Positions 5,977 through 37,929 of a DNA stretch of 64,000 nucleotides are shown piece by piece; the stretch's first letter is position 1; each line of letters opens with the position of its first letter. Under the pieces are notes generated by a model. That model made no database searches and had not been told where the DNA came from. It saw nothing but the letters and a program-made list of their open reading frames with translations. The stretch comes from Deltaproteobacteria bacterium (GTDB lineage Bacteria > UBA10199 > JACPAL01 > GCA-016699445), in the NCBI GenBank assembly GCA_016699445.1, contig CP064976.1, positions 1,897,125 to 1,961,124 of the forward strand. Direction: 5' to 3'. Made by a program: the position numbers and the translations under genes.

Positions 5977-8126
5977 ATGAAAGAAAAAATACTCGAATTT
6001 ATTGAAAAAAATAAATTTTGGACACGTGTTGTTGGAATTCTTCTTTTCTCCTTTCTGACATCCTTTGCGATGAATGTGACCTGGTCCGAGATCCCGTCGG
6101 ATTTGGAGGTGGGCAAGATTGCACGACAGGATTATCACGCAGATAAGGATTATGAGATTATTGATCATGAAGAAACCGACAAGCTTAAAGATCAAGCCGT
6201 CGAGGATGTGATTCCCGTTTTTGATTGGGATGAAGATCTGGAAGATCTGCTGGATGAAAAGATTGTGGAATCCAGAAGTGTTTTGGAGCCTTGGCAAAAA
6301 ACAGGAATTTTGATTCGCAATATCCATGATTTAAATAAACCTAAAATTCTCATCAAAGATCTCGATTCGATTTTATCGCTGGAGGAAGCCCGAAAGATGA
6401 AGCGGATCAAGGTTGGAAACAATCAAGAGCTTCGAGCCAATCTTTTCTTTAACGAAGATGAGTATCAGGAGATGCAGGATAAAGCTGCTGATTCTGTCAT
6501 GCCCATTATCATTAAGGTGCAAGCTGGTGAATCTATTATTCGAAATGGAGATCGCTTTGAGGCGCGGCATCTTAAAATCCTCAATGGTATTCGTGAGGAG
6601 AGAGAGTTGTTTTTTGGAAAGAGCCGCACCTTTGGTTCTTTTTTCTTTGTTTCGTTATTTATCGGCATCTTTCTTTTTGTTTTTGAAAAAACATCTTTCA
6701 AGATGCGTTTGAAAGATAAGGATTTGGCTTTTTTAGGAACCTTGCTCATTTTATTTATCGTGCTTGAAAGAAGTTCTATTATTATCAGTAATTCCACTCG
6801 AGGTTTTCTACCATTTTCGATGTCTCTTTCGGATTTTTATCCAGCCATTCCTATTGCAGCTGCAGCTATGATTGCGCGTTTGATGTTGCCGGTCCCTGTG
6901 GCTCTCTTTTTTGCTCCTATTTTAGCGGCTTTTGCGAGTTTGGTATTACAAAGTGATTTGTCGATGATGCTCTATTATCTTTCAGGCGGGATGATGGGGA
7001 TTTGTTGGGTCAAAGGTGTCAAAACCCGAAGCCAAATTTTAAAAGTGGGTTTATGGCTTGGAGGTCTAAATGTTTTATCACTCTCAGCCATAGATTTCTT
7101 TTATATGAATTCTAGTTTGAGTTTGATGTCTCCTTTGGAGCTGGGCATGAAGTTGCTCTTTGCTTTTTTAGGAGGTCCGCTAGCGTCTATTTTTGTTTTA
7201 ATTTTAAGCCCGATTTTTGAAAATCTTTTAATTACCTGACTCCAATTAAGCTGATTGAATATGGAAGTCTGAATCACCCTCTGCTGCGCGATATGATTGT
7301 ACAGGCCCCAGGCACTTATCATCATAGTCATATGGTGGGAACGTTGGCAGAATCTGCCTGTGCAGCGATTGGGGCGGATTCTCTTTTCGCCCGCGTGGCT
7401 TGTTATTTTCATGATATAGGAAAGATGAAAAAATCGGGATATTTTATTGAAAATATGCCGATTGGTGAAGATCGACATGCGATTTTAAGTCCTTCGATGA
7501 GTGCCTTGATTATTGTTTCTCATGTGAAGGATGGAATTGAATTGGCCAAAGAACATAAACTCCCGCAGAAGATTATTGATATTATTCCTCAACATCAGGG
7601 TACAAAACTCATCAGTTATTTTTTCAATAAAGCAAAAGAAAATGAAAACAAGGATCTGCATGTCGCTGATGAGAGAGAGTTTCGATATCCAGGGCCAAAG
7701 CCGCAAACACGTGAAGCCGGAGTCATTCTTTTGGCTGATACGATTGAAGCGGCTACTCGTGCATTGAAAGATCGATCTCCAGCGCGGCTTGAAGAAGTTG
7801 TGCGCAACATGATTAATAAAAATTTTATTGATGGTCAGTTAGATGAATGTGAACTGACGCTCAAAGATCTTCATGTGATAGGAAAGAGTTTTGTACGCAT
7901 TTTGATGGGGATCTATCACAAACGCATTGAATACCCACCCGATGCCCAAGAACTCCAGGCTCGTGCACAGGTACAGCGGGTTGAAGATGAAAATGGGGGA
8001 TCGAATGCCGATAAATATAATCAACAAACACCCATCAGCTCGGAGTCACTCTCAGACTCTCTCAAAGGTGCGAAAAATTCTTCAAAACATCTCCGTCCAG
8101 TTGGCGGTGGAAAATCTGGAAATTAA
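5977..8126 (+). pseudogene. 7TM receptor with intracellular HD hydrolase domain (PgpH/YqfF family), frameshifted at the 7TM/HD junction
   Basis: 5977..7239 encodes the extracellular plus 7TM part. 7293..8126 encodes the HD domain (PLLRDMIVQAPGTYHHSHMV, YFHDIGKM). The HD frame is already open from 7221 (KSFNYLTPIKLIEYGSLNHPLL). The frames rejoin with one extra base in the T4 run at 7226-7229. The 3' end is uncertain because it overlaps ybeY. Confidence 0.75.
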
Positions 8127-8427: not shown

Positions 8428-10055
8428 ATGATTCTTTCGCTTCTTTCAGGTTTGATTTCTGCATTCAGTTTGCCCACTTCGTTTGGAAAACTATGGCCTG
8501 ATCTTGGGTTTTTATCCTGGTTTTCGTTGGTTCCGCTTTACCTTTCTATTCGAAAAAAAAGAGCTCAAGGTAGTTTTTTAAAAGGGTTTGTGTTTGGTGT
8601 TTTTTATTTTGGAACGTCACTTTACTGGATCACGATTGCTCTTTTCCGATATGGAGATGTGCCGTTTTTGGGGAGTGTAGGCGCTTTGATGGTCTTGTCT
8701 TGTGTTCTGTCGATTTTTACGGGTTTGATCACATATTTTTCTGTGTGGGTGCATCGTCGCGGTGGGCCTATTTTTTGGGCTTTTCCATTGAGTTGGGTGA
8801 GTTTTGAATTTTTGCGAAACTATTTTCCTTTTCAAGGATTTCCTTGGGCCAATCTGGCTTATAGTCAAAGATCTTTTGGCGAGTTGATTCAGTCGCTCGA
8901 TATTTTTGGGGTTTATGGAATTATTTTTATTATCGTCCTGATTAATGCCTCTTTGGGTGAGGTGATTTATTTTTTTATTCGAGAATGGATGGATAATGAA
9001 GAGGTTGTTGGCCACAAAAAATGGGGTTCTCCCTGGGTGGCAGTTGTTATTTCCATTTTGATGATGGTGATATTGTGTTTTTATGGAAATTTTCGTCAAA
9101 AAGAAGTGCGTGAACTCATTTCGAAAAATTCTTTTTTGCGCGTCGGTCTTGTGCAGGGCAATGTTTCCCAAGATGAAAAGTGGTTAGAAGATAATGTTGA
9201 TTCGATTATTCAAAGACACATTTTTTTATCGGAAGAGGTGCAGAAGGAAAGTCCTCAATTAATCATCTGGCCCGAGTCGTCATTTCCAACGGTTATTCCA
9301 CCGGAGAAAACAGAAATTGAACTTTTGAAAAATATCCAAGCTCCTTTGCTGATGGGAATGCTGACTTATGATGGTGTCATGCCGGATGACTGGCCGCCAC
9401 CATCACCACAATCTTATGAAGGGGAGTCGTTTCAGATGCATAATGGGGCGGCGTTGATTGGAGCGGGAGGTCATGTTCAGGCTTGGTATTTTAAAAAACA
9501 TTTAGTGCCGATGGGAGAGTATATTCCTTTTAAAAAGCTGTTTTTCTTTATGGATAAAATTGTGCCTGCTGCGAGTGATTTTGTGCCTGGAAAAGATTTT
9601 CATTTGTTAACTATCGAAAATCATTCGTTTGGTGTGACGATTTGTTATGAAGATCTTTTCCGGAAATCAGTCGTACATTCACAAAAAATGGAGCTGATTT
9701 TTTGGTTAATCTCACCAATGATGCTTGGTACGATCAATCATCGGCTCTCTATCAACATTTTGATTTTTCAAGATTTCGAGCGATTGAAAATCGCCGATCG
9801 ATGGTACGAGTGACCAATACCGGCATTTCAGGCGTCTTTAGTCCAACAGGTGACGTTATTGATTCTCTCACACCGTTTCATGAAGAGACAAAAGTGATTG
9901 CCGTTCCGCTGGTAAAAATAGAAACTTTTTATCAAAAATACGGAGACCTCTTTGCTTGGGCTTGTGTTACATTTTTAGTTTTGTTACTTGGAATTTCTTT
10001 TTTACATAAGGATGAAACATGCAGAACGATGTCAAAAGAAAGCTTGAAGATTTAA
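8428..10055 (+). pseudogene. lnt: apolipoprotein N-acyltransferase Lnt, frameshifted in this assembly
   Basis: 8428..9813 holds the membrane domain and the CN-hydrolase N-part (GLVQGNV, IIWPES, VTICYEDLF). 9702..10055 holds the C-part (LTNDAWY, RAIENRRSMVRVTNTGIS). They rejoin if the A6 run at 9683-9688 is A7. The T6 run at 9998-10003 may also be under-called, which would end lnt at a TAA just before the prfB RBS. Confidence 0.8.
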
Positions 10056-11116
10056 AGAGAAATCAGCCCCTCTGCGGAGGAGGCTTTGACTTAGAGTCTA
10101 AAAAACTCCGACTCGACGAACTAGAACATCTCACCGCCTCTGATACTTTTTGGAATGATCCTCAAAAAGCCGCTGTGTCTCTTAAAGAACTTGATCAGCT
10201 AAAGGCTGATTTTGCGATTGATAAGAAGATGAGTGAAGGCTTGTCTGAAGTGGAATCTATTTTCGAACTACTGGAAGCTGGCGATGATGCCGAGCTTGAG
10301 GCGGAAGCTCAGGTGAAACTGCAAGATTTGGAGAAAACTATTAGCGATTTGGAATTTCGCCAAATTCTTTCCGGACCCAATGATAATTCGAATGCGATTT
10401 TTTCGATCAATGCAGGTGCGGGGGGAACGGAATCCTGTGATTGGGCCGAAATGCTTTTACGCATGTATCGTATGTGGGCAGATAAACATGGGTATAAAAA
10501 TGAGATTATCGATTTTACCCCAGGAGATCAGGCGGGGTTTCGATCGGTGACGATGATTGTCGAAGGGCCTTATGCGTTTGGATATTTGAAGGCTGAGATT
10601 GGTGTGCATCGGTTGGTACGTATTTCTCCGTTTGATGCTAATAAGAGACGGCATACGTCGTTTGCATCGGTGTTTGTGCTTCCAGATATTGAGCAAGAAA
10701 TTGATATTCAGGTGAATCCTGCGGATTTGCGTATTGATACTTTTAGATCTGGTGGTGCGGGTGGGCAAAAGGTTAATAAGACGGATTCTGCCGTACGATT
10801 GACTCACTTGCCGACGGGAATTGTTGTGGCTTGTCAAAATGAACGCTCTCAGCATCGCAATCGGGATATCGCGATGAAAATCCTCAAAGCGCGTCTTTAT
10901 GACCTCGAGATGGAAAAGAAGAATAAGGAAAAAGAAGCCATTGAAGATAGTAAGAAAGAAATTAAATGGGGTTCTCAGATTCGTTCATATGTTTTGCAGC
11001 CCTATCGACTGATTAAGGATCATCGTACGGATTTTGAAGTGGGAGATCCTGATCGAGTTTTGAATGGGGATCTTGATGGTTTTATAAAGGCTTATCTCTT
11101 AAGCTTGGCTTCGTAG
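10019..11116 (+). CDS. prfB: peptide chain release factor 2
   Basis: SPFDANKRRHTSFASV and the GGQ motif in RSGGAGGQKVNKTDSAVRLTHLPTGIVV. The post-shift N-terminus DLESKKLRLDELE is present. In this assembly the gene reads as one frame, although a canonical +1 frameshift cassette is present (see findings). Confidence 0.9.
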   Translation: MQNDVKRKLEDLKRNQPLCGGGFDLESKKLRLDELEHLTASDTFWNDPQKAAVSLKELDQLKADFAIDKKMSEGLSEVESIFELLEAGDDAELEAEAQVKLQDLEKTISDLEFRQILSGPNDNSNAIFSINAGAGGTESCDWAEMLLRMYRMWADKHGYKNEIIDFTPGDQAGFRSVTMIVEGPYAFGYLKAEIGVHRLVRISPFDANKRRHTSFASVFVLPDIEQEIDIQVNPADLRIDTFRSGGAGGQKVNKTDSAVRLTHLPTGIVVACQNERSQHRNRDIAMKILKARLYDLEMEKKNKEKEAIEDSKKEIKWGSQIRSYVLQPYRLIKDHRTDFEVGDPDRVLNGDLDGFIKAYLLSLAS

Positions 11117-11232
11117 TGATGTTCTCAAAATGAGGAAAAGATTCCCCTTTCTCTGTAGTTATCCACAATTTCAAAAACTATAAATAATATATAATTCAAA
11201 TAGTTAAGTCGGTGCCTGGCACCAGTGTTATT

Positions 11233-11248
11233 TGGCATATGTATTGCT
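11233..11248 (+). promoter_or_regulatory. sigma-54-type -24/-12 promoter candidate (TGGCAT-N5-TTGCT)
   Basis: It fits TGGCAC-N5-TTGCW, with GG at -24 and GC at -12. It ends about 28 bp upstream of the lipoprotein ATG at 11276. A GGTGCC-T-GGCACC palindrome lies at 11211-11223. Confidence 0.35.
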
Positions 11249-11275
11249 TTGGATAAGGATCCTAGGGACAAAACT

Positions 11276-14203
11276 ATGAAAAAATTATCATTTTATGCAC
11301 TCCTTCTTACCCTTCACCTGACCCTCTTAGTGGGTTGTTCTGGAAGTGGGGCGCCTACCGGAGGCCAGCAAACGAATCTCACACCACCAGCGGGCTTAAC
11401 GTGTACACCTTCTTCAGGAGCGAGAGGGGATAGAGTGACATGTCAAGGGCTGACGCAAACAGAAGGTTGCAATATATTATTTGATACACAGTTGGTCCCA
11501 CGTTCGGTCATTACGTTTGCAGCTTCTGGTTCGAGTACAACATTGGGTGCGTCTTCAGTGGGTGGAAATAATTTTACCTTTCCCATTCCTCCCGCAGCGA
11601 ATGGTCTTTATCATGTAAAAAAAGTTTGTGGCGATCAGATGACGACTTTGGCTCAAGTGTCGGTTGTCAATCGTGGGACTACTTCAGGTAGTGGTGGTAG
11701 CAGTGTTCCTCCATCTCAATATGCGGAATGTTCTGCTGGAAGCGATCAATGTGGCGTGAATCAAGTGTGTCGCGAAAATCACTGTGTTCCCTCGTGTAAT
11801 ACTGCTTATGATTGCGGCAGTGGTCAAATCTGCCAAAATTTTCAGTGTGTGGATAACACTCATATTGAGTGTGGTGACGCTGCCCATCCTGCAGCTTGTA
11901 GTAACGGGCTTGTTTGTTATCATGGACAGTGTAATCCCTGTCTGACTTCAGATCCGAGCCAATGTTCTCGGGACCAACCTGTGGCTTATCGGGGGAATAT
12001 TTGTCGGACAACCTCTTCAACATCATCTCCTATTTTAGGATTGTGCGGTTCTTGTGATAACACTTCACAATGTGGAGCAGGGCTTGCGTGTGTCTCAGGA
12101 AGATGCGGTGCTTGTACTACTAATTCCCAGTGCAATGCAGGAAACTACTGCAGTGCTGGTACTTGTAGAGACTCAGGTGTTAATAATGCACGTGTTAATT
12201 TTTCTGTGACCCAAGCTCCAAGGTCGACAAGCCTTTTAAGGCTTTCTTGGACTATTGAAGGTATTCAAACAGCTTCTATTCAAGATGCCTATGTCTATGG
12301 CCCTTTTGGAGTGAGTGATTGTTCAAATGTATTAAAAACATCTGAAAATGCAGACTACATCAGTAGTGAATTGCCACTGGCAAATGGGACGCCTTGTGTA
12401 AGTACTACAGACTCAAATGGCCGTACGACATGTGTCTCCGATACAGTTGCTCATGTGTTGTCAATTTCTTCTCTGGATCCAGTAACAAGTCGTGACACAC
12501 CGCCTGCAGCAGATTCCTCGCTTGCACATCCTACAGAGCCAGCAGGGATATTGCCTGGTCCAAGTCCAAGTATGACATGCCGTATTCCTTTAAGAGGTCA
12601 GCTTCAAAGCACTGTCTATACAAGAATGAAAGTGAGCCCTTCTGTTTTTCGTCTAGTTATTAAAACGCTGGATGGTCAGATTTTTATAGGGGAGAGTCGC
12701 TATACAGCTGATGGTGCTGATTTACATGTGGAAGATGTCAATATAGATTATACTAGACCTCAGTTTACAATTCGGGGTTCGTATACAAGATCTAGTGATG
12801 GAATACCTAGTTTTGATGGATGTCTTGGCGGAACGTACTCAGATAATTCAGATACAGCAGGTGTGGGAACGGTCATTTTCACTAAAACTTGTTTGTTTCC
12901 TACTAATGGCGATCTGCCAATAGTTTCTATTAATGTTCCTACAGCCATACCAGGTGTTATTTCTTCGGAAAAACAAATCGGATTTGATTGTTATTATGAC
13001 TCTGAAGATACATTTTTTAACTTTCAAAATGTGTATGCATCAGGGGCAATATGTGCCAATCATGATCAAATTAGTTCTTTAGCTGGACAAACCTTACATC
13101 TCTGTCCTGACGGGAGTCTTCAGTTAACAACGCATATTCGGAGAGCTTGTAATATTAACGTGAACGGTGAGCCTCTCTTTGAGACTCCAAAAAATAATCC
13201 ATGGTTTGTCAAATTTCTAGTATCTCAGTATTCAGCTGCAGGAGGTTGTTCCGAAACAACTGGCTTGATCAATGTAGATGGTAGTGTTCGGTCTGGTCTT
13301 CAAGTATTACCTTCTTCTGGTGAAATACAATTTGATAATCGTCAGACAAGGAATCTTAGTTGTAATTCTTACCAGATGGCTATTACAGATGGGCCATCCT
13401 TTGACATTGAAACACCATTCTTTACGGGAGATGCCTTAATTCAAGTGGTCAAAAATTTTAATGCTACAAATTGGTCTTATGATTACGTTTTATCTGATAC
13501 TTATTGGGATGGAGGTACTGATTTACAGTATTGCGCTAGACCAGGAGGTCTTCTTGGTGAGTCTGGTGTATGGCTCTATCTTCGTGATCATGACCGCATT
13601 GAAAGACATTTAGATGTTCCTTTTGGAAATACTCCAGATGGTTTATATTGTAGTTTTGGTGGAGGAAATTACCATAGTAGCGACGATGGTGTAACTGGCT
13701 GTTCCAAGTATAATGGTCATTTAGTGGCTGATATTCAAACTAGAGGGGTTACCTCCTTTGATGTTAGTTGTTGTGCATATGGTGAATGGTCTCATGGTGG
13801 AGTGGAAAGGGATCCTCCTCTAGATGGAATTCAGGGACACTATGGGGAACAGGCAGGTTCTGTATGTGCTCCGGGTGGCAGATTGTTTCGATGGAGTTAT
13901 AACTCTGTACCACCTATTAGTCCTTCAGGTGGAGCTGTATCAAATCCCTTTGATCATGTTATCTATGGAGAGGTTGTTCGATGTGGAATTATGGCTCCAG
14001 GTATTTTAGCTGGCCCTGGAACACGCACTAGTGTTGCCTTTGACTTTACAAGACCTATGAATGGTCGCTGTGATTATCCGGATAGAGATCACGTGGATCC
14101 TGATGACTCAGATCAAAGTGATTGGCCTCTACTATGGCATGGTTACCCCGTATTGCCTTTAGGGACGACCTACCCTTTAGGTATATATACTGCACCTCGA
14201 TAG
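11276..14203 (+). CDS. large secreted lipoprotein (~975 aa) with an N-proximal block of cysteine-rich repeats and a C-terminal domain without recognisable family
   Basis: Signal peptide plus lipobox LLVGC|SGSG. Residues ~150-320 carry at least six C-x(3-5)-C-x(4-6)-C-x(3-4)-C repeats, for example QCGAGLACVSGRCGAC and QCNAGNYCSAGTC. The start was moved to MKKLSF behind the SD AGGGA. Confidence 0.7.
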   Translation: MKKLSFYALLLTLHLTLLVGCSGSGAPTGGQQTNLTPPAGLTCTPSSGARGDRVTCQGLTQTEGCNILFDTQLVPRSVITFAASGSSTTLGASSVGGNNFTFPIPPAANGLYHVKKVCGDQMTTLAQVSVVNRGTTSGSGGSSVPPSQYAECSAGSDQCGVNQVCRENHCVPSCNTAYDCGSGQICQNFQCVDNTHIECGDAAHPAACSNGLVCYHGQCNPCLTSDPSQCSRDQPVAYRGNICRTTSSTSSPILGLCGSCDNTSQCGAGLACVSGRCGACTTNSQCNAGNYCSAGTCRDSGVNNARVNFSVTQAPRSTSLLRLSWTIEGIQTASIQDAYVYGPFGVSDCSNVLKTSENADYISSELPLANGTPCVSTTDSNGRTTCVSDTVAHVLSISSLDPVTSRDTPPAADSSLAHPTEPAGILPGPSPSMTCRIPLRGQLQSTVYTRMKVSPSVFRLVIKTLDGQIFIGESRYTADGADLHVEDVNIDYTRPQFTIRGSYTRSSDGIPSFDGCLGGTYSDNSDTAGVGTVIFTKTCLFPTNGDLPIVSINVPTAIPGVISSEKQIGFDCYYDSEDTFFNFQNVYASGAICANHDQISSLAGQTLHLCPDGSLQLTTHIRRACNINVNGEPLFETPKNNPWFVKFLVSQYSAAGGCSETTGLINVDGSVRSGLQVLPSSGEIQFDNRQTRNLSCNSYQMAITDGPSFDIETPFFTGDALIQVVKNFNATNWSYDYVLSDTYWDGGTDLQYCARPGGLLGESGVWLYLRDHDRIERHLDVPFGNTPDGLYCSFGGGNYHSSDDGVTGCSKYNGHLVADIQTRGVTSFDVSCCAYGEWSHGGVERDPPLDGIQGHYGEQAGSVCAPGGRLFRWSYNSVPPISPSGGAVSNPFDHVIYGEVVRCGIMAPGILAGPGTRTSVAFDFTRPMNGRCDYPDRDHVDPDDSDQSDWPLLWHGYPVLPLGTTYPLGIYTAPR

Positions 14204-14328: not shown

Positions 14329-15726
14329 ATGGAACCAACTACAACATCTAGCGAATACGAAAATCGGTTGAAACGTTTGGAAGAGCTCAAAGCTCAAGGG
14401 ATCAATCCTTATCCAAATGGATTTCAAGTTACGCACACAACACACGAGATTAGTGAAAATTATGAAAAGCTTTCGGGTGAAGAGCTCGAAAAAATCGAAA
14501 CGACTTTTAGTCTAGCGGGTCGTATCATGATGGTACGAGCTTTTGGAAAAGCTGCGTTTATTCGCATCAAAGATCGTAAAGGGTATTTGCAGCTTTTTAT
14601 CGATCAAAAAGGTGTCGATGCTGAAACGTTTGCTCTCTACAAAAATCTCGATATCGGAGATTTTATTTTTGTTTCTGGAAAATTATTTCGCACCAAGACC
14701 AACGAGCTGACCTTGCGCATTGAAACTCTCAAGTTTGCTGGAAAAGCTTTACGACCCTTACCTGAAAAATGGCATGGGCTTCATGATGTCGAAATTCGTT
14801 ACCGTCAGCGGTATCTGGATTTGGTCGCCAATGATGATGTGCAAAATGTTTTTCGTAAGCGTGCCAAAATCGTCCAGCAGATCCGAGAGTTTTTTATCGA
14901 TCGGGATTATATCGAGGTGGAGACTCCTATGATGCATCCTTTGGCAGGAGGGGCTGCGGCCAAGCCTTTTGTCACGCATCATAATACTCTCAATATGGAA
15001 CTGTATTTGCGCATTGCCCCTGAGCTTTATTTAAAACGCTTGGTTGTGGGTGGCTTCGAGCGCGTTTTTGAAATCAATCGTAATTTTCGTAATGAAGGCA
15101 TTTCGACTCAACACAATCCAGAATTTACGATGATTGAGTTTTACCAATCGTATGCGACGTTTGAGGATTTGATCACGTTGACCGAAACTCTTTTTTCACA
15201 ATTAGCTCAAAAAGTGTGTGGAAGTGATGTGGTTCCGTACCAAGGAAAGGAACTTTCTTTTAAAGCTCCTTTTGCGCGCATGACTCATGAAGAAATGATG
15301 AGAGTAGGAGAGAAGAATATTATTCAGCCTACTTTTGTGACGGATTTCCCTCTGAAAGATTCTCCTCTGGCTCGAAAGAATGAAAAGAATGGTGAGATCT
15401 GTGATCGGTTTGAGCTTTATGTAGCCGGCATGGAAGTGGCCAATGCATTTTCAGAGCTGAATGATCCCATAGATCAAAAAGAACGTTTTCTGGCTCAAGT
15501 GGAAGCCAAGAAAAAAGGTGATGATGAAGCCATGCCTTTTGATGAGGATTATATTCGTGCTTTGGAGCATGGGCTTCCTCCGACCGCTGGAGAAGGGATT
15601 GGGATTGATCGTCTTGTCATGCTTTTGACAGATCAACCTTCCATTCGTGACGTCATCTTGTTCCCTCTGATGAGGCCTGAACACAAGACAGAAAATAAAC
15701 CAGAAGATAAGATGCCTCAAAGCTAA
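14329..15726 (+). CDS. lysS: lysine--tRNA ligase (class II)
   Basis: Full-length LysS with class II motifs: FRNEGIS, ELYVAGMEVANAFSELNDP, GLPPTAGEGIGIDRLVMLL. Confidence 0.95.
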   Translation: MEPTTTSSEYENRLKRLEELKAQGINPYPNGFQVTHTTHEISENYEKLSGEELEKIETTFSLAGRIMMVRAFGKAAFIRIKDRKGYLQLFIDQKGVDAETFALYKNLDIGDFIFVSGKLFRTKTNELTLRIETLKFAGKALRPLPEKWHGLHDVEIRYRQRYLDLVANDDVQNVFRKRAKIVQQIREFFIDRDYIEVETPMMHPLAGGAAAKPFVTHHNTLNMELYLRIAPELYLKRLVVGGFERVFEINRNFRNEGISTQHNPEFTMIEFYQSYATFEDLITLTETLFSQLAQKVCGSDVVPYQGKELSFKAPFARMTHEEMMRVGEKNIIQPTFVTDFPLKDSPLARKNEKNGEICDRFELYVAGMEVANAFSELNDPIDQKERFLAQVEAKKKGDDEAMPFDEDYIRALEHGLPPTAGEGIGIDRLVMLLTDQPSIRDVILFPLMRPEHKTENKPEDKMPQS

Positions 15727-15883: not shown

Positions 15884-16126
15884 ATGAATAAGGGTTACTC
15901 AGTTTATATCATGAGCAATCAAAATAATACGGTTCTCTATACAGGTGTAACCAACAATCTTGAGCGTCGCATTGGAGAACATAAAAATGGAGTGGGAGGA
16001 TATTTTACATCAAAATATCAGGTTACCAAACTGGTTTACTATGAAACAACCAATCGGGTTGAAGAAGCTCTCGCCCGAGAGAAACAAATTAAAAAGGTTC
16101 TCGGAAAAGAAGATTGGCCTCATTGA
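15884..16126 (+). CDS. small GIY-YIG nuclease-superfamily protein (YhbQ/COG2827-like)
   Basis: VYIMSNQNNTVLYTGVTNNLERRIGEH...KLVYYE is the GIY-YIG core at the N-terminus of an 80-aa protein. There is no convincing SD. Confidence 0.6.
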   Translation: MNKGYSVYIMSNQNNTVLYTGVTNNLERRIGEHKNGVGGYFTSKYQVTKLVYYETTNRVEEALAREKQIKKVLGKEDWPH

Positions 16127-27199: not shown

Positions 27200-28115
27200 C
27201 TATCCGTCATTTCAAACATCTTTTGAAGAGGTTTCAGAGCCGCGAGGCGTAAGGTTTCAGGCATAGTGATTTCAGGTTTGAGATCGCGTAGACAGAGGTA
27301 GAGTTTTTCCAAAGTGTTGCGCTTCATGTGAGGACATTCATTGCAAGCGCAGTTGGCATCTGGTGGTGCTGCGTAAAACTTCTTATGTGGAGCGGCTTTT
27401 TCCATCTGATGCAAAATGCCGGCTTCGGTCAGAACAATAAATTCTTGTGCAGGATCTTTTTGGGAAAATTCCAGCAAGCGCGATGTCGAGCCAATAAAGT
27501 CGGCGTATTTGAGGATATGTTCTTCGCATTCGGGATGCGCGATCACTTTGGCATTTGGGTAACGGACTTTCAGTTGCACTAATTTTTTTTCACTGAAAAT
27601 TTCATGAACGATACACGAGCCATTCCATAAGACCATCTCCGACCAATAGTTTTGGCCAGATAGGCTCCGAGATTTTATCGGGAGCAAAAATAATTTTGAT
27701 CTTTTGGAATCTGTCGGACAATTTTTTCGGCATTACTTGAGGTACAGATGATGTCACTCAAGGCTTTAATCTCGGCCGTGCAGTTGATGTATGAGATGAC
27801 GATGTGGTCGGGATGTTGTTTCTTAAATTCTAAAAATTTATCAGCCAGACAACTATCAGCGAGCGAACAACCCGCTTCAAGATCCGGGATGACAACAGTT
27901 TTGGTGGGATTTAAAATCTTGGCTGTCTCAGCCATGAAATGAACACCGGCAAAAACAATCACATCGGCATTGGTCTTTTGAGCGCGTCGGGCTAGCCCCA
28001 GACTATCTTCCACATAATCTGCCAAATCCTGAATCTCCGACTCTTGATAAAAATGAGCGAGGATGACGGCATTACGTTCTTTTTTAAGCTTTATAATTTC
28101 CTGAATGTAATCCAT
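27196..28115 (-). pseudogene. nadA: quinolinate synthase NadA, frameshifted in this assembly
   Basis: 27675..28115 is the N-part ([23 protein letters not shown]). 27196..27687 is the C-part ([20 protein letters not shown]). The middle segment KIIFAPDK sits in the third frame. At least two indels fall in A/T runs around 27676-27700. Confidence 0.85.
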
Positions 28116-28126
28116 AGGCCGACCCT

Positions 28127-28951
28127 ATGCCGAGCTCAAAACCCTTGTCAAACCAGCATCCTCAGTATTTTCATAATCGCCATCATCAAGCAGCTTTTGA
28201 AAAAGTTCGTGAGTTGGCTAGCTCCATAACGCTGCAGCCTATCACTTCCGACCCGGTCTATTTTGTTCACCAATACACGAATCACCAAGATCAAGAAGTG
28301 GTCGGCCTTATTTCAGCCTTGATGGCCTTTGGGCAGGTGAAGTCAATTCATGCAGCTTTGAGAAGGATTTTTGAAGTGATGGGGACGTCTCCTGTGCGTT
28401 ACTTGAAATCTTTTGATGAGGCGAAAGGCATTAAGTTAAAAACGATTCAGCATCGATGGGTGAGAGGGGATGATTTGATTTTGTTGATGAAGACTTTATC
28501 AAAAATACTGAAAGAGTATGGTTCACTCAAAAATTTATTTTTGGAAGGGTATCGAGAGATCGAGGATGTTTCGATTGCGATGGGTTTATTTTCAAAAAAG
28601 TTTTTAGAAATGAGCGGGCAAAAATCCTGGTCTCGAGGTTTTCGCCATTTTTTCCCATCTCCAGAAGGAGGGTCGCCTTGTAAGAGACTGTGTATGTATC
28701 TTCGTTGGATGGTACGCCCGAGAGATGGGGTGGATTTGGGTTTGTGGACAGAAATCAAGCCGGCGGCTTTGATTGTTCCTTTGGATACTCATATTTATCA
28801 ATTTGCCAAAAAATACCGATTGAGCCGGCACAAAAATCCAAACTGGAAGGCTTCTTTAGAAATCACTCAATTTCTGAAAACCATCGATTCTGAAGATCCC
28901 GTGAGATACGATTATGCGATTTGTCATTATGGAATGGAGGTGGGGTGGTAG
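28127..28951 (+). CDS. TIGR02757/DUF2400 family protein
   Basis: The conserved C-terminal block RWMVRPRDGVDLGLW...PLDTHI..FA matches the DUF2400 pattern. Confidence 0.55.
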   Translation: MPSSKPLSNQHPQYFHNRHHQAAFEKVRELASSITLQPITSDPVYFVHQYTNHQDQEVVGLISALMAFGQVKSIHAALRRIFEVMGTSPVRYLKSFDEAKGIKLKTIQHRWVRGDDLILLMKTLSKILKEYGSLKNLFLEGYREIEDVSIAMGLFSKKFLEMSGQKSWSRGFRHFFPSPEGGSPCKRLCMYLRWMVRPRDGVDLGLWTEIKPAALIVPLDTHIYQFAKKYRLSRHKNPNWKASLEITQFLKTIDSEDPVRYDYAICHYGMEVGW

Positions 28952-29016
28952 AGTGACGCGCTGCATAGCAACTTTTTAAAGGGGGAGTCGATAATAAGCC
29001 TTTAAAAGGAGATTTT

Positions 29017-29247
29017 ATGAATGTACCTCTTCAATCACTTCAACAACCTACTTTTCAAGTGTTAGGATATTCTGGCGTTACTGAAGCAAAACCCACTACT
29101 GCTGTAGACTCAAATGCCATGATAAGGCTTCAAAACGAAACAGAGAAGCTTGTAATAGATGGTTTAAGAAATGAACCACTAATTGTCCGATTACTTGCCG
29201 GTTTTGCGACTTTAGGATGTAAACTTTTAGAGAGAAGATCTTCGTAA
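29017..29247 (+). CDS. small hypothetical protein (76 aa)
   Basis: The SD GGAG sits 7 nt upstream of the ATG. No family is recognised. It is convergent with rpsT. Confidence 0.35.
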   Translation: MNVPLQSLQQPTFQVLGYSGVTEAKPTTAVDSNAMIRLQNETEKLVIDGLRNEPLIVRLLAGFATLGCKLLERRSS

Positions 29248-29559
29248 CTAAGCAGCGATCTTAGCCACTAACTTAGACAAACGAGAAACATGACGAGACG
29301 TCGTATTTCTGTGAAGAATTCCTTTTTTACCAACACGATCTAAAAGAGAAGAAGCATTCTTGAGAGCTTCTTTTGCTTTTCCAGAATCCTTAGCGGCCAC
29401 AGCTTGGCGCACTCTCTTAACAGCTGTACGCATAGCTGAAATTTCAGATTTATTCTGAGCTTGTTTTTTAGAACTCTGACGGTGACGTTTAATCGCTGAA
29501 GCGTGGCGACCTTTAACGAGTTTTTTCTTTTTAGGAGCTTCTTTAGTTTCTTCTGCCAT
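29248..29559 (-). CDS. rpsT: 30S ribosomal protein S20
   Basis: SAIKRHRQS...SAMRTAVKRV...LHRNTTSRHVSRLSKLV is S20 with a short basic N-terminal extension. The start was set at MAEETK. Confidence 0.8.
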   Translation of the reverse strand: MAEETKEAPKKKKLVKGRHASAIKRHRQSSKKQAQNKSEISAMRTAVKRVRQAVAAKDSGKAKEALKNASSLLDRVGKKGILHRNTTSRHVSRLSKLVAKIAA

Positions 29560-29592
29560 AAGGTGGGCTGAGCTAGCATTCACTTCGAAAAT

Positions 29593-30939
29593 ATGTCAAT
29601 CCCGAAAACCCAAAAACATACGAATATGGAAAAAAGTCAAATCTTGAAAAAAGCGGGTGGAGTGAGTTTTTTGACCCTCGTGAGTCGCGTGACGGGGATG
29701 TTGCGAGATATGGCTATTGCTCATGTTTTTGGAGCCGGAGCTTTGACAGATATGTTTTTTGTGGCCTTTCGTTTGCCTAATCTCTTCCGTCGCCTTTTTG
29801 CTGAGGGCGCTTTGACGGGAGCTTTTGTGCCGGTCTTTGTGGAGATCAAGGATTCCGATCAAGCCAAAATTATTTTTAATAAAGTGTTTTCGTGGATGAC
29901 CACTATTTTGGGTGGCCTGCTTTTACTCCTGATTTTATTGGCTCCAGCGCTTGTCTATGTGCTCGCTCCAGGTTTGGTTCATTCAGCAAATTATGATCAG
30001 ACAGTTACGATGGTGCGCTGGCTCTTACCGTATCTTTTACTCATCGGTTGGACCGCTTTAGGGATGGGTGTGGCTAATAGTTTGGGAATTTTTCGCCCTC
30101 TGCCACAGCTCCTGTTTTGCTCAATGCGGGAATGATTAGTGGCGCTTTGTTTTCGGAAATTTTTTGTCCAACCTATCTATGGTCTCGTCATGGGAGTGTT
30201 GGTGGGAGGAGTGGCTCAAGTGGTGATTCATCTGCCAATACTTAAAAAACATCACTTGAGCCCACGATTTGATTTTCAAAAGCATCCAGCTTTAGAAAAA
30301 ATGAGCAAGCTCTTCTGGCCCTCGTGCTATGGAGCGGCGATCTATCAGTTTCATGTATTGCTCATCACGGCTCTGGCGACATTTCTGCCAGCAGGGAGTG
30401 TGTCGTGGCTTTGGTATGCGGATCGTCTGTTTCAATTTCCATTAGGACTGGTGACGATTGCAATGGCAACGGTGCTGTTGCCCACACTATCGATTCAAGC
30501 ACAAAGTATTGCTACTCTTGAAGGTAGACAAAAACTCAAAGAGACGTTGTCATTTTCCATGAAAACGACCTTGGCTTTGATTATTCCAGCGACATTAGGC
30601 TTGATAGTATTGGCCAAGCCAATCGTGAAGTTATTATTTGAACATGGTCAATTTGGCCCGAATGACGTGATCGGTACACAAAAAGTATTGATTATGACAG
30701 CGATCGGACTGCCTTTTGTCTCGATTTCAAAACTTCTCTCCCAAGTCTTTTTATCGCTTCAACAACCAAAAATTTTACTCAAAGCTTCTAATCTTTCCGT
30801 GGCCCTTCACATTCTATTTTCAGTCATTCTCATCAAGCCCCTAGCATCGCAGGGTCTCGCTTTGGCTTTAAGTCTCTCAGCCATCGGCCACGCTGGGGAG
30901 TTGGGGTATCGGTTGAAAACGTCTTTCAAATCTATCTGA
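29593..30939 (+). pseudogene. murJ: lipid II flippase MurJ (MviN), with two compensating frameshifts about 70 nt apart
   Basis: 29593..30135 and 30139..30939 are in the same frame, separated by TGA. The conserved segment ATAPVLLNAGMISGALFSEIF is read in another frame between the T5 run at 30089-30093 and the T6 run at 30160-30165. Confidence 0.8.
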
Positions 30940-31667
30940 GAGATTATTTCGATAGTTTTATGAGAAGTAGGGTGAGGAAATTGGAGACGATAGGCATGTA
31001 AATAGAGACGATCTGCGCTGACTTTTCCATAAATTTTATCTCCCACAATGGGATGTCCAATCGTTGAAAGATGAGCACGGATTTGGTGGCGTCGGCCTGT
31101 TTTGATGCGTACAGATAACCATGTCGTAGGGGCAGGCCCCCGTGCCTGTCCTGATAATGTGGGAACATTCATTTCAGGGCAACCACGGAGGGTTGCTCCT
31201 ACGGGTTCATAAAACGTCACCGCTTCTTGAGCTTTATGACGAATGGCTTCCTTCTTGTCTTTATACACTTTCACCCGCTTTGCACTCTTAGGATCAGGCC
31301 CGATGGGCCAGGTGATTTTTCCTGGTTTTGCAATGTGTCCCTGCACAAGAGCTCTGTATTCTTTTTCAACTTTGTTCGATGAAAAAGCTTTTCAAAAATA
31401 GTCATAAGTTTTCTGATCACGTGCAAAAATCACAAGTCCGGAGGTTTCGACATCCAACCGATGCACCGCTCCCCAGTCACTTCCTCCTATATTTTTTAAT
31501 TCAGGAAATTTTTGTGAAAGAAGATGGGCCAGTGTTTTTTGTAGAGGCGGTTCATGAACCGCCTCTACGGGTAATGGCTGTGTTGGAATCCCTGGGGGCT
31601 TTTCAACCACAAGAAAATGATTATCTTCAATATGGATTGTAATATCCTGAACCTCTATCGACTTCAT
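30807..31667 (-). pseudogene. RluA-family pseudouridine synthase carrying an in-frame TGA
   Basis: 31392..31667 is the N-part (HRLDVETSGLVIFAR). 30807..31346 is the C-part (TGRRHQIRAHLSTIGHPIVGDKIYG). Both are in the same frame, and the conserved KEYRALVQG is read straight through the TGA at 31392-31394. Confidence 0.75.
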
Positions 31668-32344
31668 CGATACGATGCCCCAATCCAGGTGATGACGATA
31701 TTGCTTAAGGCATGAAAGAGAATAGGGGCGACAAGGCCATTTGTTTTTTCTCGTAGCCATCCAAAGACTAAAGCGGGAAAGAAGATTGAGAAATGCCACC
31801 ATTGAAAAGCAATCAAGCTATGTGAAGCGGCAAAGATAATGGCACTGAGAGGAATGCTGTAGGTCGCCTCTAGATGAAGTGGTTTGAGAAATGATATTTG
31901 GTCATCAAATCGAAACTTTAAAAAGCTTTGGAGATAGCCTCTAAAGAAAAGTTCTTCGGGAAATCCCACCAAAATAATTTGTGAAAAACAAAACGTCAGT
32001 GACAGGCCTGTTGAGTTGGGTTGGAATGTAAGATTTAAAAAATGAGTGAGGACAAGATGGCTGAGCCCTAAAAAGAGAGGGAAAATAATTGCCGATGTGA
32101 GTGTGAATAGTTTTAATGATGAAATGACTTCTTCTGATTTTTCAAAAAATCGGATCGGGATTTTTCTTTTTTCTACATACAAAAGAGCGGGATAAATGAG
32201 AATAACAGCCACAATCGTTGACAGATAATCATGCAGAATGGGCTGGTGACGAAAAGTGTAGAGAATTTTAATTGTGGCAATGACCGCCAGAAAAAAAAGT
32301 GTCGCTTCTCGATTTAGGTTATGAGGCTTTTTTGTATCGAGCAT
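31664..32344 (-). CDS. CPBP family intramembrane glutamic endopeptidase (CAAX protease-like)
   Basis: Multi-TM protein with EELFFRGYL, the FxxxH motif and conserved His residues. It is ATGA-coupled to rluA. Confidence 0.75.
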   Translation of the reverse strand: MLDTKKPHNLNREATLFFLAVIATIKILYTFRHQPILHDYLSTIVAVILIYPALLYVEKRKIPIRFFEKSEEVISSLKLFTLTSAIIFPLFLGLSHLVLTHFLNLTFQPNSTGLSLTFCFSQIILVGFPEELFFRGYLQSFLKFRFDDQISFLKPLHLEATYSIPLSAIIFAASHSLIAFQWWHFSIFFPALVFGWLREKTNGLVAPILFHALSNIVITWIGASYR

Positions 32345-33107
32345 GGAGATATAAATAAAGAATGAATGCGGCCAGTGCGACGCTTAAGCCCGTGATTTGT
32401 CCTGTAGAAATCGTTCCTCCAAAGTACACACCACGATCGGCGTCTCCTCGGAAAAATTCAATAAAGGCTCTTGGCAAAGACCATCCCATCACCAGAGCAC
32501 AGATGGTTTCTCCTGGATACTGTTTGTGATTTTTATAAAACCATCGAACAAAAAAGAAGAGTAGTGTGGCATGAATCATGGAATAAATCTGCGTGGGATG
32601 AAGGGGTAGATTAGGATAATAATAATAAGCTGTGGATGCTGGATCGGTAAACGTAATGGCCCATGGAAGATTGGTGGGTTTGCCATAACAACAGCCAGTC
32701 AAAAGGCATGCTAGGCGTACAAAAAATTTAATCAGTGGTGCTCCTGTTGCAAAAAAATCCATGTATGTCCAAATAGGAAGTTTGCGGACTTTGAAATAAA
32801 TCGGAAGTGAAATCGCTAACCCAATAAAAGCTCCCCAAGAAACAAACCCGCCTCTCCAAAATTCAAATACGCGCATGGGCTTAGCCCAGTAGTAAGCAGG
32901 CGCTTCGACTAAAATGTGGAAGATACGAGAACCTAAAACGCCAACCACCATACCTAAAATACCCATATCCAACATGGCTTCTTGTTGAAGTCCTGCCTTT
33001 TTGGCATTGAAGAAAAGATAGAATGTACAGGCTAATGTCGCCACCATGATGAAAAAGAAAAAAGAAGGTACCTTGGTGCCTCCGATTGAAAATAAAAATG
33101 GCATCAT
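32319..33107 (-). CDS. lgt: prolipoprotein diacylglyceryl transferase Lgt, paralog 1
   Basis: GGFVSWGAFIG, the G-rich signature region and TQIYS. It overlaps lspA by ATGA. Confidence 0.85.
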   Translation of the reverse strand: MMPFLFSIGGTKVPSFFFFIMVATLACTFYLFFNAKKAGLQQEAMLDMGILGMVVGVLGSRIFHILVEAPAYYWAKPMRVFEFWRGGFVSWGAFIGLAISLPIYFKVRKLPIWTYMDFFATGAPLIKFFVRLACLLTGCCYGKPTNLPWAITFTDPASTAYYYYPNLPLHPTQIYSMIHATLLFFFVRWFYKNHKQYPGETICALVMGWSLPRAFIEFFRGDADRGVYFGGTISTGQITGLSVALAAFILYLYLHARYKKAS

Positions 33108-33661
33108 GGAAGAAGAACCCCTTTTTTGTTTCTTTTGTCATCAGACAGCATGAAAAAAAGAAGAAGTGTGATAGCAAGGCAGATTGCAGAATCTGCAATA
33201 TTAAAAGCTGGCCACTCAAGCCTAAAATAAAAATAGTGACCCAAGAGGGTAAAATCAGCCCATCGATCATAATAATGAAATGAGAGAAAATCGACGACTT
33301 CACCCAAGGTGATGCGGTCATAAATATTTCCTAAGGCCCCACCTAAAATCAGCCCCAAACTAATATGGACGCAATTATTTTCAGGGTATTCACGCGAAAA
33401 ATAATACAGCATACCCACCAAAGCGACAATCGAGCTCACAAAGAAAAATGGCATGCGAATATTTTCAGGCATTTCAGCCATAAATCCAAAAGCAGCACCC
33501 TTATTGCGTGTGTGGATGATGTCGAAAAGTCCAGGGATGACAGACATAAAAATATCCCTTGGGACATTTTCTACAATCCAATGCTTGCTCCATTGATCCA
33601 ATGCAAAAACAATAGAAGCGAGCCCTAAGATGAGAGGCCATTTTTTGAAAAAATTATTCAT
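33104..33661 (-). CDS. lspA: lipoprotein signal peptidase II
   Basis: DQWSK, NKGAAFG, GGALGNIYDR, VVDF and FNIADSAI. It is in the conserved ileS-lspA arrangement. Confidence 0.85.
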   Translation of the reverse strand: MNNFFKKWPLILGLASIVFALDQWSKHWIVENVPRDIFMSVIPGLFDIIHTRNKGAAFGFMAEMPENIRMPFFFVSSIVALVGMLYYFSREYPENNCVHISLGLILGGALGNIYDRITLGEVVDFLSFHYYDRWADFTLLGHYFYFRLEWPAFNIADSAICLAITLLLFFMLSDDKRNKKGVLLP

Positions 33662-36467
33662 GATGTGATGGCCTCAATACAAGCTTTGCAGATGGTTGGA
33701 TGTGTGGCATCAGCTCCGATATCTTCTCTCCATTTCCAACAACGTTCACATTTGACGCCATTAGCGCGTTGGATTTCAATAAAGAGAGAGGGGAAAAGAG
33801 AGCTGGGTTTGGCTTTCTCCGAAATATCTTCGCTCCATTCAATTTGGGAGACTTGAAGAAGATCTGAAAGCTGATTCCCAAAGCTTTCCAGCAAGTGAAG
33901 GGGCTCATCGGCTGCTGTAAAAATAATTTTAGCTTCCAGAGAATTACCAATCACTTTATTCTGCCTGGCTTCTTCGAGATTTTTTAAAATATCAGTTCGC
34001 AATTCTTTAAAATTTTCCCAACGACTGGACAAAGCCTCATTGATCGCAGCCTGATCCGCTTGAGGGAATCGTGATAAATGAATAGAAGATGTTTTATCGT
34101 TAAAATTGGGAAGGTGCTTCCAGATTTCCTCAGAAGTAAAAGCTAAAATAGGCGCCATGAGTTGGCTCATGACAGTGACAATTTCAAAAAGCACCTTCTG
34201 AGCTCCTCGACGTGCTGGATGACTTTTAGAAAAAGCATAAAGTCGATCTTTTAAAATATCGAGATAGAAAGCGGATAAATCAACCGTACAAAAACGATTG
34301 AGCTCATGAAAGATCATGTGAAAACTATAATCTTCATAGGATTTTTGAACTTTTAAAATCAGCTTTTGCAGTACGTGTCGTGCATAATGATCAATTTCGT
34401 ACAACTCCACTTTGTCCCATGGAGTGCTTGTGTCAAAATCAGAAATATTTCCTAGAAGAAAGCGGGCTGTGTTGCGGATCTTGCGATAAGCTTCGGCTAA
34501 GCGCGTGAGGATTTCATTCGAAACACGGATGTCATTTCGATAATCTTCGGCTGCGACCCAGAGACGTAAGATTTCAGCGCCATTTTCTTTAATGACTTTT
34601 TCTGGCGGGACGTAATTGCCAGCAGACTTGGAATATTTTTTCCATGACTATCGACAACAAACCCATGAGTGAGAACAGTCTTGTAAGGTGCTTTTCCACG
34701 TGTGCCAACAGAGGCTAAAAGAGAGGCATGAAACCAACCACGATGTTGATCACTTCCTTCTAAATAAAGATCGGCTGGAAACGTCAGCCCTTCTCGTTTT
34801 TCCAAAACAGAGGCAAAGCTCACTCCGGAATCAAACCAAACATCCAAAATATCTTCTTCTTTAAGCCAGTCTGAAGCTTGGCATTGTGGGCACTTGGTAC
34901 CCTGAGGGAGAAGATTTTCTGTGGGTTCGGAAAACCATACATCCGAACCTTCTTTTTCAAAACGATCAGCAATGGTGTTGATGATATTTTGATCCAGCAA
35001 GAGGTGCTGACATTCACGGCAACGAAAAGCCATGATGGGAACTCCCCAGCTTCGCTGACGCGAGAGACACCAGTCAGGACGATTTTCCACCATGCCGTAA
35101 ATACGTTCGCGGCCCCAATGAGGGATCCAATTGACACGACGAATGGCATCAAGAGCCTTGCCTTTGATGTCATGCTTGGAGAGCGACAAAAACCATTGTT
35201 CGGTTGCGCGAAAAATCAAAGGCTTCTTACAGCGCCAACAATGCGGGTACATGTGCTCAATATTTTTTTCTTTCAGGAGAGCATTCTTTTCCTTGAGAAG
35301 AGCAATAACCGTGGGATTGGCTTCTAAGACTTTTAAGCCTTTCCATTCTTCGATGCCACATTCGCTCGTATAGCGACCTTCACCATCGACAGGTGTGAGT
35401 GTCGGAAGTTTGTATTTTTTGCCCACATCATAATCTTCTTCACCATGTCCTGGAGCAATATGAACGCATCCTGTTCCTGTATCGACTGTTACGTGATCGG
35501 ACAGTACAACGTCCGATACTCTATTCAAAAATGGATGTTGAGCTTTAAGACCTTCAAGCTTTTCACCGGCAATACGGTAAGCAGGTTCGGATTCTGGTGT
35601 TTCCAAAGTTTCACAAACAGCCGAAGCGAGTTGTTTGGCAACAATCAAAAACTCGTTTCCCACAGGCATGGCGACATAGTCATAGCTCGTATGAACAGCC
35701 ACTGCGAGATTAGCAGGTAGTGTCCAAGGTGTGGTTGTCCAGATGACGATCGAAACTTTTTTGCCTTCCAGCTTAGGGAAGAGAGTTTTGAAAGCATTGT
35801 CCTGCAGCATTTCAAATTTGACATAAACAGAAGGGGATGTGTGATTTTCGTGTTCGACTTCCGCATCGGCCAAGGCTGTACGGCAATAAGCACACCACAA
35901 GACGGGACGCAGTCCTTTATAAATATCTCCCTGAGCGGCAAATTTTCCAAACTCACGCGCGATCTGCGCTTCGTAAGGATAATTCATCGTGAGGTAAGGT
36001 TCATCCCAGTCTGCAGAGATTCCCAAACGTTTAAAATCTTGTCGTTGGAGATTCACAAACTTCATCGCATAGTCACGACAAGCTTTGCGAATATCTGTCT
36101 TCGACATCGTTTTCTTTTTAGGTCCAAGATCTTTATCTACTTGATGTTCAATGGGGAGACCATGGCAGTCCCAGCCAGGAATGTAGGGGCTATAATGACC
36201 CAACATGTTGTGATAACGAACAATGATATCTTTTAAGATTTTATTGAGAATGTGACCAAAGTGAATGTTGCCATTGGCATACGGTGGCCCATCATGAAGA
36301 ATAAATTTCGGTCCGTTTTTATTGGTCTCTAAAATCTTTTGATAGAGCTGGTCTTTTTCCCATTTTTCCAACACGAGAGGTTCGCGTTTGGCCAAATCTG
36401 CTTTCATGGGAAATTCTGTTTGGGGGAGATGCAGGGTATCTCGATACTTCTTCGTCTCTTCAGTCAT
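33658..36467 (-). pseudogene. ileS: isoleucine--tRNA ligase, frameshifted at the KMSKS region in this assembly
   Basis: 34497..36467 is the N-part (HIGH motif PYANGNIHFGH, editing domain). 33658..34410 is the C-part ending in a Zn ribbon (CERCWK...CKAC). The C-part frame is open back to about 34636. The frames rejoin if the T6 run at 34636-34641 (A6 on the coding strand) is 7 long. Confidence 0.9.
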
Positions 36468-36475
36468 TTTTTTGC

Positions 36476-36979
36476 CTAATCTTTTTCGTCGACACCGACA
36501 TTGGTAATTTCAAAATCATCTTTTCTTAAATAATCTGTCATTTTGGAGAGGAATTTTTTTTCTTCACTATAATCCGAATGCAAACGACCGGTAATGATTG
36601 AGCGTGCTGTGGTGAAAACATCCACGTGTGATTTTCCAGCTTTTTCTTCCAGCTTCACAGTCATGCGATAGTAAGCTCCAACCGTACCGTAGTCTTTTTT
36701 GCCAAACAGTTCCAAATAGTGAGAGGTGGCTTTGGTGCTGATCCAATTAGTTTGAATGAGCCCACTATCCTCATCGGCACGCACAATCTTAAATCCAGCA
36801 TGTTCCAAAACTTTTTGTGCGGCAGTGAAAGTTTCTTTGGGAGTGGAAGAAAATGTTTTGGAAATGGGGGTAAACTCTTTGTCTTTGGAATGGACGATGA
36901 CTTTATTGCAGGCAGTCAAAAACGTCAGCGTCATCACAAGACTCATGAGGCTTAAGGTGTACAGAATTTTTCTTTTCAT
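36476..36979 (-). CDS. hypothetical lipoprotein (167 aa)
   Basis: Signal peptide with lipobox LTAC|N. No family is recognised. It lies between ileS and lgt2. Confidence 0.55.
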   Translation of the reverse strand: MKRKILYTLSLMSLVMTLTFLTACNKVIVHSKDKEFTPISKTFSSTPKETFTAAQKVLEHAGFKIVRADEDSGLIQTNWISTKATSHYLELFGKKDYGTVGAYYRMTVKLEEKAGKSHVDVFTTARSIITGRLHSDYSEEKKFLSKMTDYLRKDDFEITNVGVDEKD

Positions 36980-37775: not shown

Positions 37776-37929
37776 TATTTAACCTTTTTCGCAAAATAAA
37801 GCATTTCGGGAAGATGGCAACCCAAATTCAGCTTTGATACTATCCTAGTAAAAATAGAACCCCCCCCCTTTCAATTTTTACAAGGATGCAAGGTTGACAA
37901 GATTTCCGTGCACAGAATAACTGCGGCCT

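Follow-up and report, generated by a model that had tools for sequence, protein, structure and literature searches.

A one-base gap upstream of an intact prfB frameshift cassette in a deltaproteobacterial genome is probably an assembly error

Introduction

In Escherichia coli and Bacillus subtilis, prfB, the gene for release factor 2 (RF2), is autoregulated by a +1 frameshift. The recoding site comprises a purine-rich Shine-Dalgarno (SD)-like element, a 3-nt spacer and the sequence CTT TGA C, after which the +1 frame encodes the RF2 body. In E. coli, the leader that precedes the shift is 25 codons long. A survey of the prfB frameshift covers 12,753 genomes (PMC12421855; Prince, Lin and Feaga, 2025), and single-nucleotide deletions that fuse the two frames of prfB are known from Pseudomonas fluorescens SBW25 evolved in the laboratory (Lim et al., 2026; PMC13245932).

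Here, we focus on prfB in a stretch of 64,000 nt (hereafter the window; positions 1,897,125 to 1,961,124 of contig CP064976.1, assembly GCA_016699445.1) from a Deltaproteobacteria bacterium. Its source is a metagenome-assembled genome (MAG) that consists of one contig of 2,746,553 bp. The window contains a frameshift cassette of the E. coli and B. subtilis type, but the gene as deposited crosses this cassette in the wrong frame. Comparison with related sequences suggests, with a probability that we put at roughly 0.9, that the assembly has lost one A at window positions 10054-10056 and that the gene itself has the classic layout.

The prfB gene and its cassette as assembled

The RF2 open reading frame (ORF) occupies 10019-11116 on the + strand and encodes 365 aa with the PCRF (5.5e-56) and RF-1 (3.4e-45) domains. 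Its translation contains a GGQ motif and an SPF motif of the RF2 type, and its top homologues in a protein search are annotated as peptide chain release factor 2. The protein is deposited in GenBank as QQR79768.1 ("MAG: Deltaproteobacteria bacterium"), and the nearest relatives of the lineage carry the labels Deltaproteobacteria, Pseudobdellovibrionaceae and Myxococcota.

The cassette GGAGGAGGCTTTGAC, which can be parsed as GGAGG-AGG-CTT-TGA-C, lies at 10076-10090 (+) and coincides with codons 20-24 of the 365-aa ORF. Its SD-like element GGAGGAGG (10076-10083) consists of a GGAGG core (10076-10080) and the spacer AGG, so that 3 nt separate GGAGG from CTT; the element is invariant in the loci of three relatives described below (L001, L002, and L003). 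The shift site (10084-10090) follows with the slippery CTT, the RF2-specific stop TGA (10087-10089) and C (10090), that is CUU UGA C in the mRNA, and is likewise identical in L001-L003. A search of the 64-kb window with the pattern GGAGGNNNCTTTGAC returned one match, the cassette itself, against 0.01 expected from shuffled sequences. The +1 frame is open for 342 codons from GAC (Asp24) at 10088 to the stop at 11114-11116 (+) and includes both RF domains with the SPF and GGQ motifs.

The ORF starting at 10019 crosses the cassette as GGA GGA GGC TTT GAC (...QPLCGGGFDLESKK...), in the +1 frame relative to CTT TGA. Over the cassette, the assembled gene is therefore read in the frame that a ribosome normally occupies only after the +1 shift. 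The CTT/TGA frame is closed by a TGA at 10045-10047, with no ATG, GTG or TTG between this stop and the cassette. An ATG at 10012 shares the frame of the cassette but ends at the same TGA. A frame-0 start about 20-30 codons upstream of the cassette is lacking in the deposited window and present in all three relatives. The preliminary description of this DNA, made from the window alone, had recognized the canonical cassette, the gene reading through it in another frame, and a frame 0 with no start and a stop at 10045; our analysis agrees with it on all of these points.

A single-base difference from related sequences

We compared the window with Logan contigs from three independent samples, SRR12404947 (~98% nucleotide identity), SRR1027651, and SRR12487045. 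The loci used were L001/L085, L002, and L003, the last of which equals L005 (NCBI MAG contig CAZKQW010000001) at the examined sites. In the protein search, the RF2 body proved 100% identical in amino acid sequence to P0001, a shortened gene call of 313 aa on a Logan contig of SRR12404947. RF2 gene calls in other close relatives are likewise shortened, to 288-322 aa, and those in the relatives compared here span 288-313 aa. Such shortened calls are the gene-caller pattern expected for a genuine prfB frame-0 stop.

Alignment of the 5' regions reveals a single length difference in the leader, 22 nt upstream of the SD-like element. The window reads GATTTAAAGAG (GATTT-AAAGAG), whereas L001 and L002 read GATTTAAAAGAG and L003/L005 read GATCTGAAAGAG. 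The window thus has a run of three A at 10054-10056 (+), one base shorter than its relatives, where L001/L085 and L002 have four A and L003/L005 have CTGAAAGAG (CTG AAA GAG), equal in length to the four-A version. Among these sequences, only the window is without the extra base. The start codon ATG (10019-10021, +) is invariant in the four-sequence alignment, and the ribosome-binding site AAGGA (10008-10012, +), 6 nt upstream of it, is kept in L001, L002, and L003. In the relatives, this ATG opens a short frame-0 leader, in which ATG and 22 further codons lead in a single frame up to CTT, followed by TGA C, with Leu-Lys-Glu encoded at the site of the length difference. In L003/L005, the leucine codon has changed synonymously from TTA to CTG. 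Hence, the frame-0 reading Leu-Lys-Glu is conserved and under selection. A comparison of prfB 5' regions in relatives was one of the checks put forward in the preliminary description, and it yields the extra base and the classic layout in all three.

Addition of one A to the run at 10054-10056 creates a frame-0 ORF, MQNDVKRKLEDLKEKSAPLRRRL*, whose 23 codons end at the TGA of the cassette. Together with a +1 shift, this repaired leader yields a product of 365 aa. The repair alters residues 14-23, which read RNQPLCGGGF as assembled and EKSAPLRRRL after repair. Compared with the RF2 homologue P0008 (NCBI; ...TKADALRRRLDL..., ...ALRRRLDL...), the repaired version shares 6 of these 10 residues and the as-assembled version none. 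The position of the missing base differs from that proposed in the preliminary description, where an additional C was placed in the run of four C at 10067-10070 (+). This run exists and an added C would restore the frame arithmetically (...RNQPPLRRRL*), but the run is identical (CAGCCCCTCTG) in L001/L085, the ~98% relative that has the classic in-frame arrangement, and we reject this repair. A base dropped from the assembly, also raised there, is the best-supported explanation, with A at 10054-10056 rather than C as the base concerned. Judged from the alignment, the true leader is ...DLKEKSAPLRRRL, not ...DLKRNQPPLRRRL. In the deposited entry QQR79768.1, the ten residues 14-23 are thus probably wrong and an annotation of ribosomal slippage is probably missing.

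RF2 loci from GTDB species genomes and Logan contigs were also surveyed. Among 56 cassette-like matches, 43 have the sequence CTTTGAC. A frame-0 start lies upstream of every real cassette apart from that of the window, the sole genuine outlier; the remaining listed exceptions comprise a locus truncated at a contig end and second matches in loci that have a normal cassette. None of the sequences compared is an independent assembly with the three-A version, and the nearest of them (~98% nucleotide identity) carries four A. A pattern accepting three or four A matched neither version in metagenome contigs of the Joint Genome Institute. As a route to data from the same strain, exact look-ups in the contig index of the 365-aa RF2 and of a 465-aa tRNA-synthetase protein (14329-15726) returned nothing, nor did a look-up of an FtsJ-like protein. 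The literature, searched with the accessions of the run and the protein, yielded no papers either.

By analogy with the known systems, the repaired site would most likely work as follows. Ribosomes would start at the ATG at 10019, preceded by AAGGA, and translate the 23 codons of MQNDVKRKLEDLKEKSAPLRRRL until CUU occupies the P site and UGA C the A site. The internal GGAGG, 3 nt upstream, would pair with the anti-SD sequence and hold the ribosome there. With little RF2 available, the weak UGA C would bring about termination only slowly, and the peptidyl-tRNA-Leu could re-pair in the +1 frame on UUU, after which translation from GAC onward (DLESKK...) would give full-length RF2. When RF2 is plentiful, termination at UGA would release only the 23-aa leader. 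Both frameshifting and autoregulation are extrapolated to this locus from E. coli, B. subtilis, and P. fluorescens (PMC12421855; PMC13245932).

In this lineage, lnt and prfB share 37 nt, since lnt runs into the beginning of the prfB leader and has its stop at 10053-10055. The absent A falls at the lnt stop codon (T AAA in the window, T AAAA with the extra base), and the stop is TAA in both versions.

Several RF2 entries in protein databases, for example P0004 and P0016, open with ...GGGFDL..., such as MSRFGGGFDLAEK. These N-termini arise when a spurious start further upstream puts the cassette into the +1 frame, and mis-called RF2 N-termini of this kind are numerous in public protein sets.

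Error load of the assembly

The window was aligned to three stretches of two Logan contigs from the close relative (L085, L086, and L087), covering window positions 4376-27198 and 27212-37830, about 33.4 kb at 98-99% identity. Over this span, there are 15 length differences of one or two bases. In each case it is the window that has lost bases, with no gains, and the losses lie mainly in A/T runs.

Two losses precede the prfB site at 10054 (A4 to A3), both from T5 to T4. One, at 7226 (run 7226-7229, +), splits a 716-aa 7TM-HD protein into ORFs of 420 and 277 aa. The other, at 9656 (run 9656-9659, +), splits lnt, 534 aa in the relative, into ORFs of 461 and 117 aa; here, four relatives agree against the window, with T5 or a sequence of equal length. 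Further downstream, A runs are shortened at 16096 (A6 to A5), 16105 and 16566 (both A5 to A4), and 23292 (A6 to A4), and T runs at 27673 (T5 to T4), 27694 and 30150 (both T6 to T4), and 30094 (T6 to T5). The four remaining losses affect a G between A runs (16268), an A outside any run (27640), a C between T runs (34639), and a G4 run reduced to G3 (37269). Since these four fall outside runs of five or more bases, a loss from A4 to A3 fits the error profile of this assembly.

Apart from the one in prfB, every loss (14 of 15) cuts short or divides a gene whose counterpart in the relative is one intact ORF. In addition to the 7TM-HD protein and lnt, the losses hit genes for a GIY-YIG protein, a lolC/E-like permease (406 aa), a Trm112-FHA protein (223 aa) and an lgt paralogue (266 aa), as well as a 53-aa ORF, nadA (307 aa), murJ (438 aa), and ileS (940 aa). 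Pfam profile coordinates independently confirm the splits in lnt, nadA, ileS, and the lgt paralogue. A trpE-like gene (310-1529), which lies outside the compared region, also appears split, as judged by Pfam continuity only. Because ileS, lnt, and murJ cannot really be frameshifted while a 98% relative keeps them intact, these losses are consensus errors. Homopolymer indels that fragment genes are a known signature of unpolished nanopore assemblies (PMC9262707).

A reference-free scan, in which a base was inserted or deleted at every homopolymer and merged ORFs were sought, proved noisy and also merged genes that are truly adjacent; it was used only jointly with Pfam continuity and the contigs of the relative. 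A suspected split of gshB (56992-57927) was not counted, as the adjoining ORF encodes an HU protein. An apparent split of a pseudouridine synthase gene was ruled out as an indel and is a CGA to TGA substitution instead. The in-frame TGA lies at 31392-31394 (-), where the relative has CGA (TTTTCGAAAA to TTTTTGAAAA), and the terminal TAG of the relative's gene is also absent from the window. This TGA could be a substitution error beside a T run or a real nonsense polymorphism. Findings from this window that depend on the reading frame are suspect, and the sequence needs polishing before such inference.

Assembly error or mutation

The cassette, the length difference and the error load of the assembly are observed directly, and from them we infer that the A was lost by error rather than by mutation. 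A deposited assembly without one A of an A4 run would have its leader fused to the +1 frame by accident. Several points weigh against this reading. The prfB site is the only shortened A/T run of exactly four bases among about 250 such runs (counted in the first 16.7 kb compared), and the other losses lie mostly in runs of five or six. Unlike the other losses, the deletion leaves its gene, prfB, intact, so that selection need not remove a real deletion. The nearest sequence available for comparison comes from another strain, at 1-2% divergence, rather than from the same population. Moreover, the error is deduced from comparison rather than seen in reads. The expected frequencies of the two kinds of event can be set side by side as rough estimates. 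Short contexts are hit roughly 0.1 times per kb, and the overall rate is about 0.4 per kb; for the 66 nt of the leader, this amounts to some 0.01-0.03 expected errors. For a deletion of the right phase that is strictly neutral, the expectation in this lineage is about 0.01, a figure based on few intergenic indels in the same alignments. Strong purifying selection would cut this neutral expectation considerably; it is suggested by the hyper-conservation of the cassette across bacteria, the lack of its elements in species with an in-frame prfB (PMC12421855), the selection of the P. fluorescens deletions only in a background with a crippled slippery codon, and the frame-0 start kept by every cassette-bearing relative examined.

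If the deletion were real, the lineage would lately have lost one A, which joined frame 0 and the +1 frame into one. Synthesis of RF2 would be constitutive and need no frameshift, and the cassette would be functionless and not yet decayed. The preliminary description had offered this fusion beside a dropped base, and we keep it as an improbable explanation, because the error load of the assembly speaks for a different origin: at least 14 other losses of the same direction and kind in the window cannot be real, with ileS, lnt, murJ, and nadA broken. A real deletion would be compatible with the as-assembled ORF, which is an intact and complete RF2, and with the length of the A4 run, which is shorter than the runs of most evident errors. 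Experimental evolution of P. fluorescens also provides a precedent, as single-nucleotide deletions that bypass the stop arose there repeatedly as suppressors and removed autoregulation without a detectable cost in the laboratory (PMC13245932). However, these suppressors appeared only once frameshifting was crippled, whereas the cassette in the window is perfect. Similarly, an in-frame prfB in about 36% of bacterial species indicates that loss does occur, but those species keep neither the SD-like nor the slippery element (PMC12421855). The cassette is hyper-conserved across bacteria, and in the window it is base for base the same as in the relatives; hence, any fusion would have to be very recent. 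Furthermore, the extra base is kept in the nearest relative (~98% nucleotide identity) and in two more distant ones, and all cassette-bearing RF2 loci examined except the window have a frame-0 start.

We give hardly any credence to a further explanation, in which a correct sequence retains a working cassette through an unconventional entry into frame 0, followed by the usual +1 shift. Ribosomes might initiate downstream of the TGA at 10045 on a non-canonical codon, or enter by read-through or a shift from the mini-ORF that begins with the ATG at 10012. That ATG does lie in the frame of the cassette, but the frame stops at 10045-10047 and offers no ATG, GTG or TTG before the cassette is reached. 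In addition, the ATG at 10019 with its conserved AAGGA is the start used in all relatives, and the complete in-frame ORF that begins there would dominate expression. To our knowledge, such an entry has no precedent. An assembly deletion of one A thus seems to us the most probable reading.

Neighbouring features

Between lnt and prfB, the close relative carries an insertion of 99 nt (L001 2730-2828, corresponding to L085 5633-5731) that is absent from the window at 10005/10006. The insertion has TAC on both flanks, and its fold comprises two stable hairpins (-40.3 kcal/mol, z = -4.9). It has no match in Rfam and no second copy in the sequences compared. It may be a small element resembling miniature inverted-repeat transposable elements or repetitive extragenic palindromic sequences.

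Downstream of prfB lies a cysteine-rich ORF of 992 aa (11225-14203, +) with a signal- or lipobox-like N-terminus. Its position is kept in all close relatives, where it encodes 953-990 aa, and it has no Pfam family on record. Relative to one of these relatives, it shows an in-frame length difference of 6 nt at 13458.

Synteny with the first contig of the relative stops after a relA/spoT-like gene (window ~27200; L086 12770-15455). Beyond this break, the relative has a vapBC-like PIN/antitoxin gene pair and an ORF of 648 aa, and the window continues with nadA. The nadA gene of the relative is located on a different contig, adjoining a PhdYeFM antitoxin gene.

Implications

The biological weight of the site is small, since it is the textbook prfB recoding signal and already known. 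The consequence for annotation is of another kind. Here an indel error would have mended a programmed frameshift, so that the gene looks intact, escapes checks for pseudogenes and frameshifts, and is annotated as an ordinary coding sequence. Surveys of prfB autoregulation would score QQR79768.1 as in-frame and free of frameshifting. Should the deletion be true after all, this uncultured Bdellovibrio-like deltaproteobacterial lineage would offer a rare view, in nature, of RF2 autoregulation being lost. It would also represent a natural intermediate of a route so far seen only in laboratory evolution of P. fluorescens.

Comparison with known systems

The anomaly resembles nanopore-type consensus errors in that the losses in this assembly run one way, concentrate in A/T runs, and fragment genes (Sereika et al., 2022; PMC9262707). 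The source, a single multi-megabase MAG contig, is a further point of likeness. Unlike the usual homopolymer indel error, the probable one in prfB mends a programmed frameshift and breaks no ORF.

The frame-fusing deletions of P. fluorescens SBW25 are similar to the difference seen here, as one base is gone upstream of the internal stop and the start is brought in frame with the RF2 body; in SBW25, this abolished autoregulation (PMC13245932). The SBW25 deletions, however, altered the cassette itself, taking out either one G from the SD-like run or the T that precedes the stop, and selection yielded them only where the slippery codon had been crippled. In the window, by contrast, the cassette is intact, the absent base lies 22 nt upstream of it, and the assembly has many losses of a similar kind.

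With respect to the prfB paradigm of E. coli and B. subtilis, the locus has the same order of purine-rich SD-like element, 3-nt spacer, CTT TGA C, and RF2 body in the +1 frame; the cassette recurs in relatives both near and remote. The SD-like element GGAGGAGG differs from the consensus AGGGGG, which is within the normal variation among the surveyed relatives, and its spacing matches the published consensus (PMC12421855). The deposited leader departs from the paradigm in lying in the +1 frame, which makes a frameshift unnecessary. After repair, a leader of 23 codons starts at an ATG with its own SD sequence, as in the paradigm. Every sequence feature of a prfB frameshift site is thus found in the window except an in-frame start, which is probably lost only through the base that the assembly lacks. 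The site is an ordinary, long-known prfB recoding signal in an uncultured lineage.

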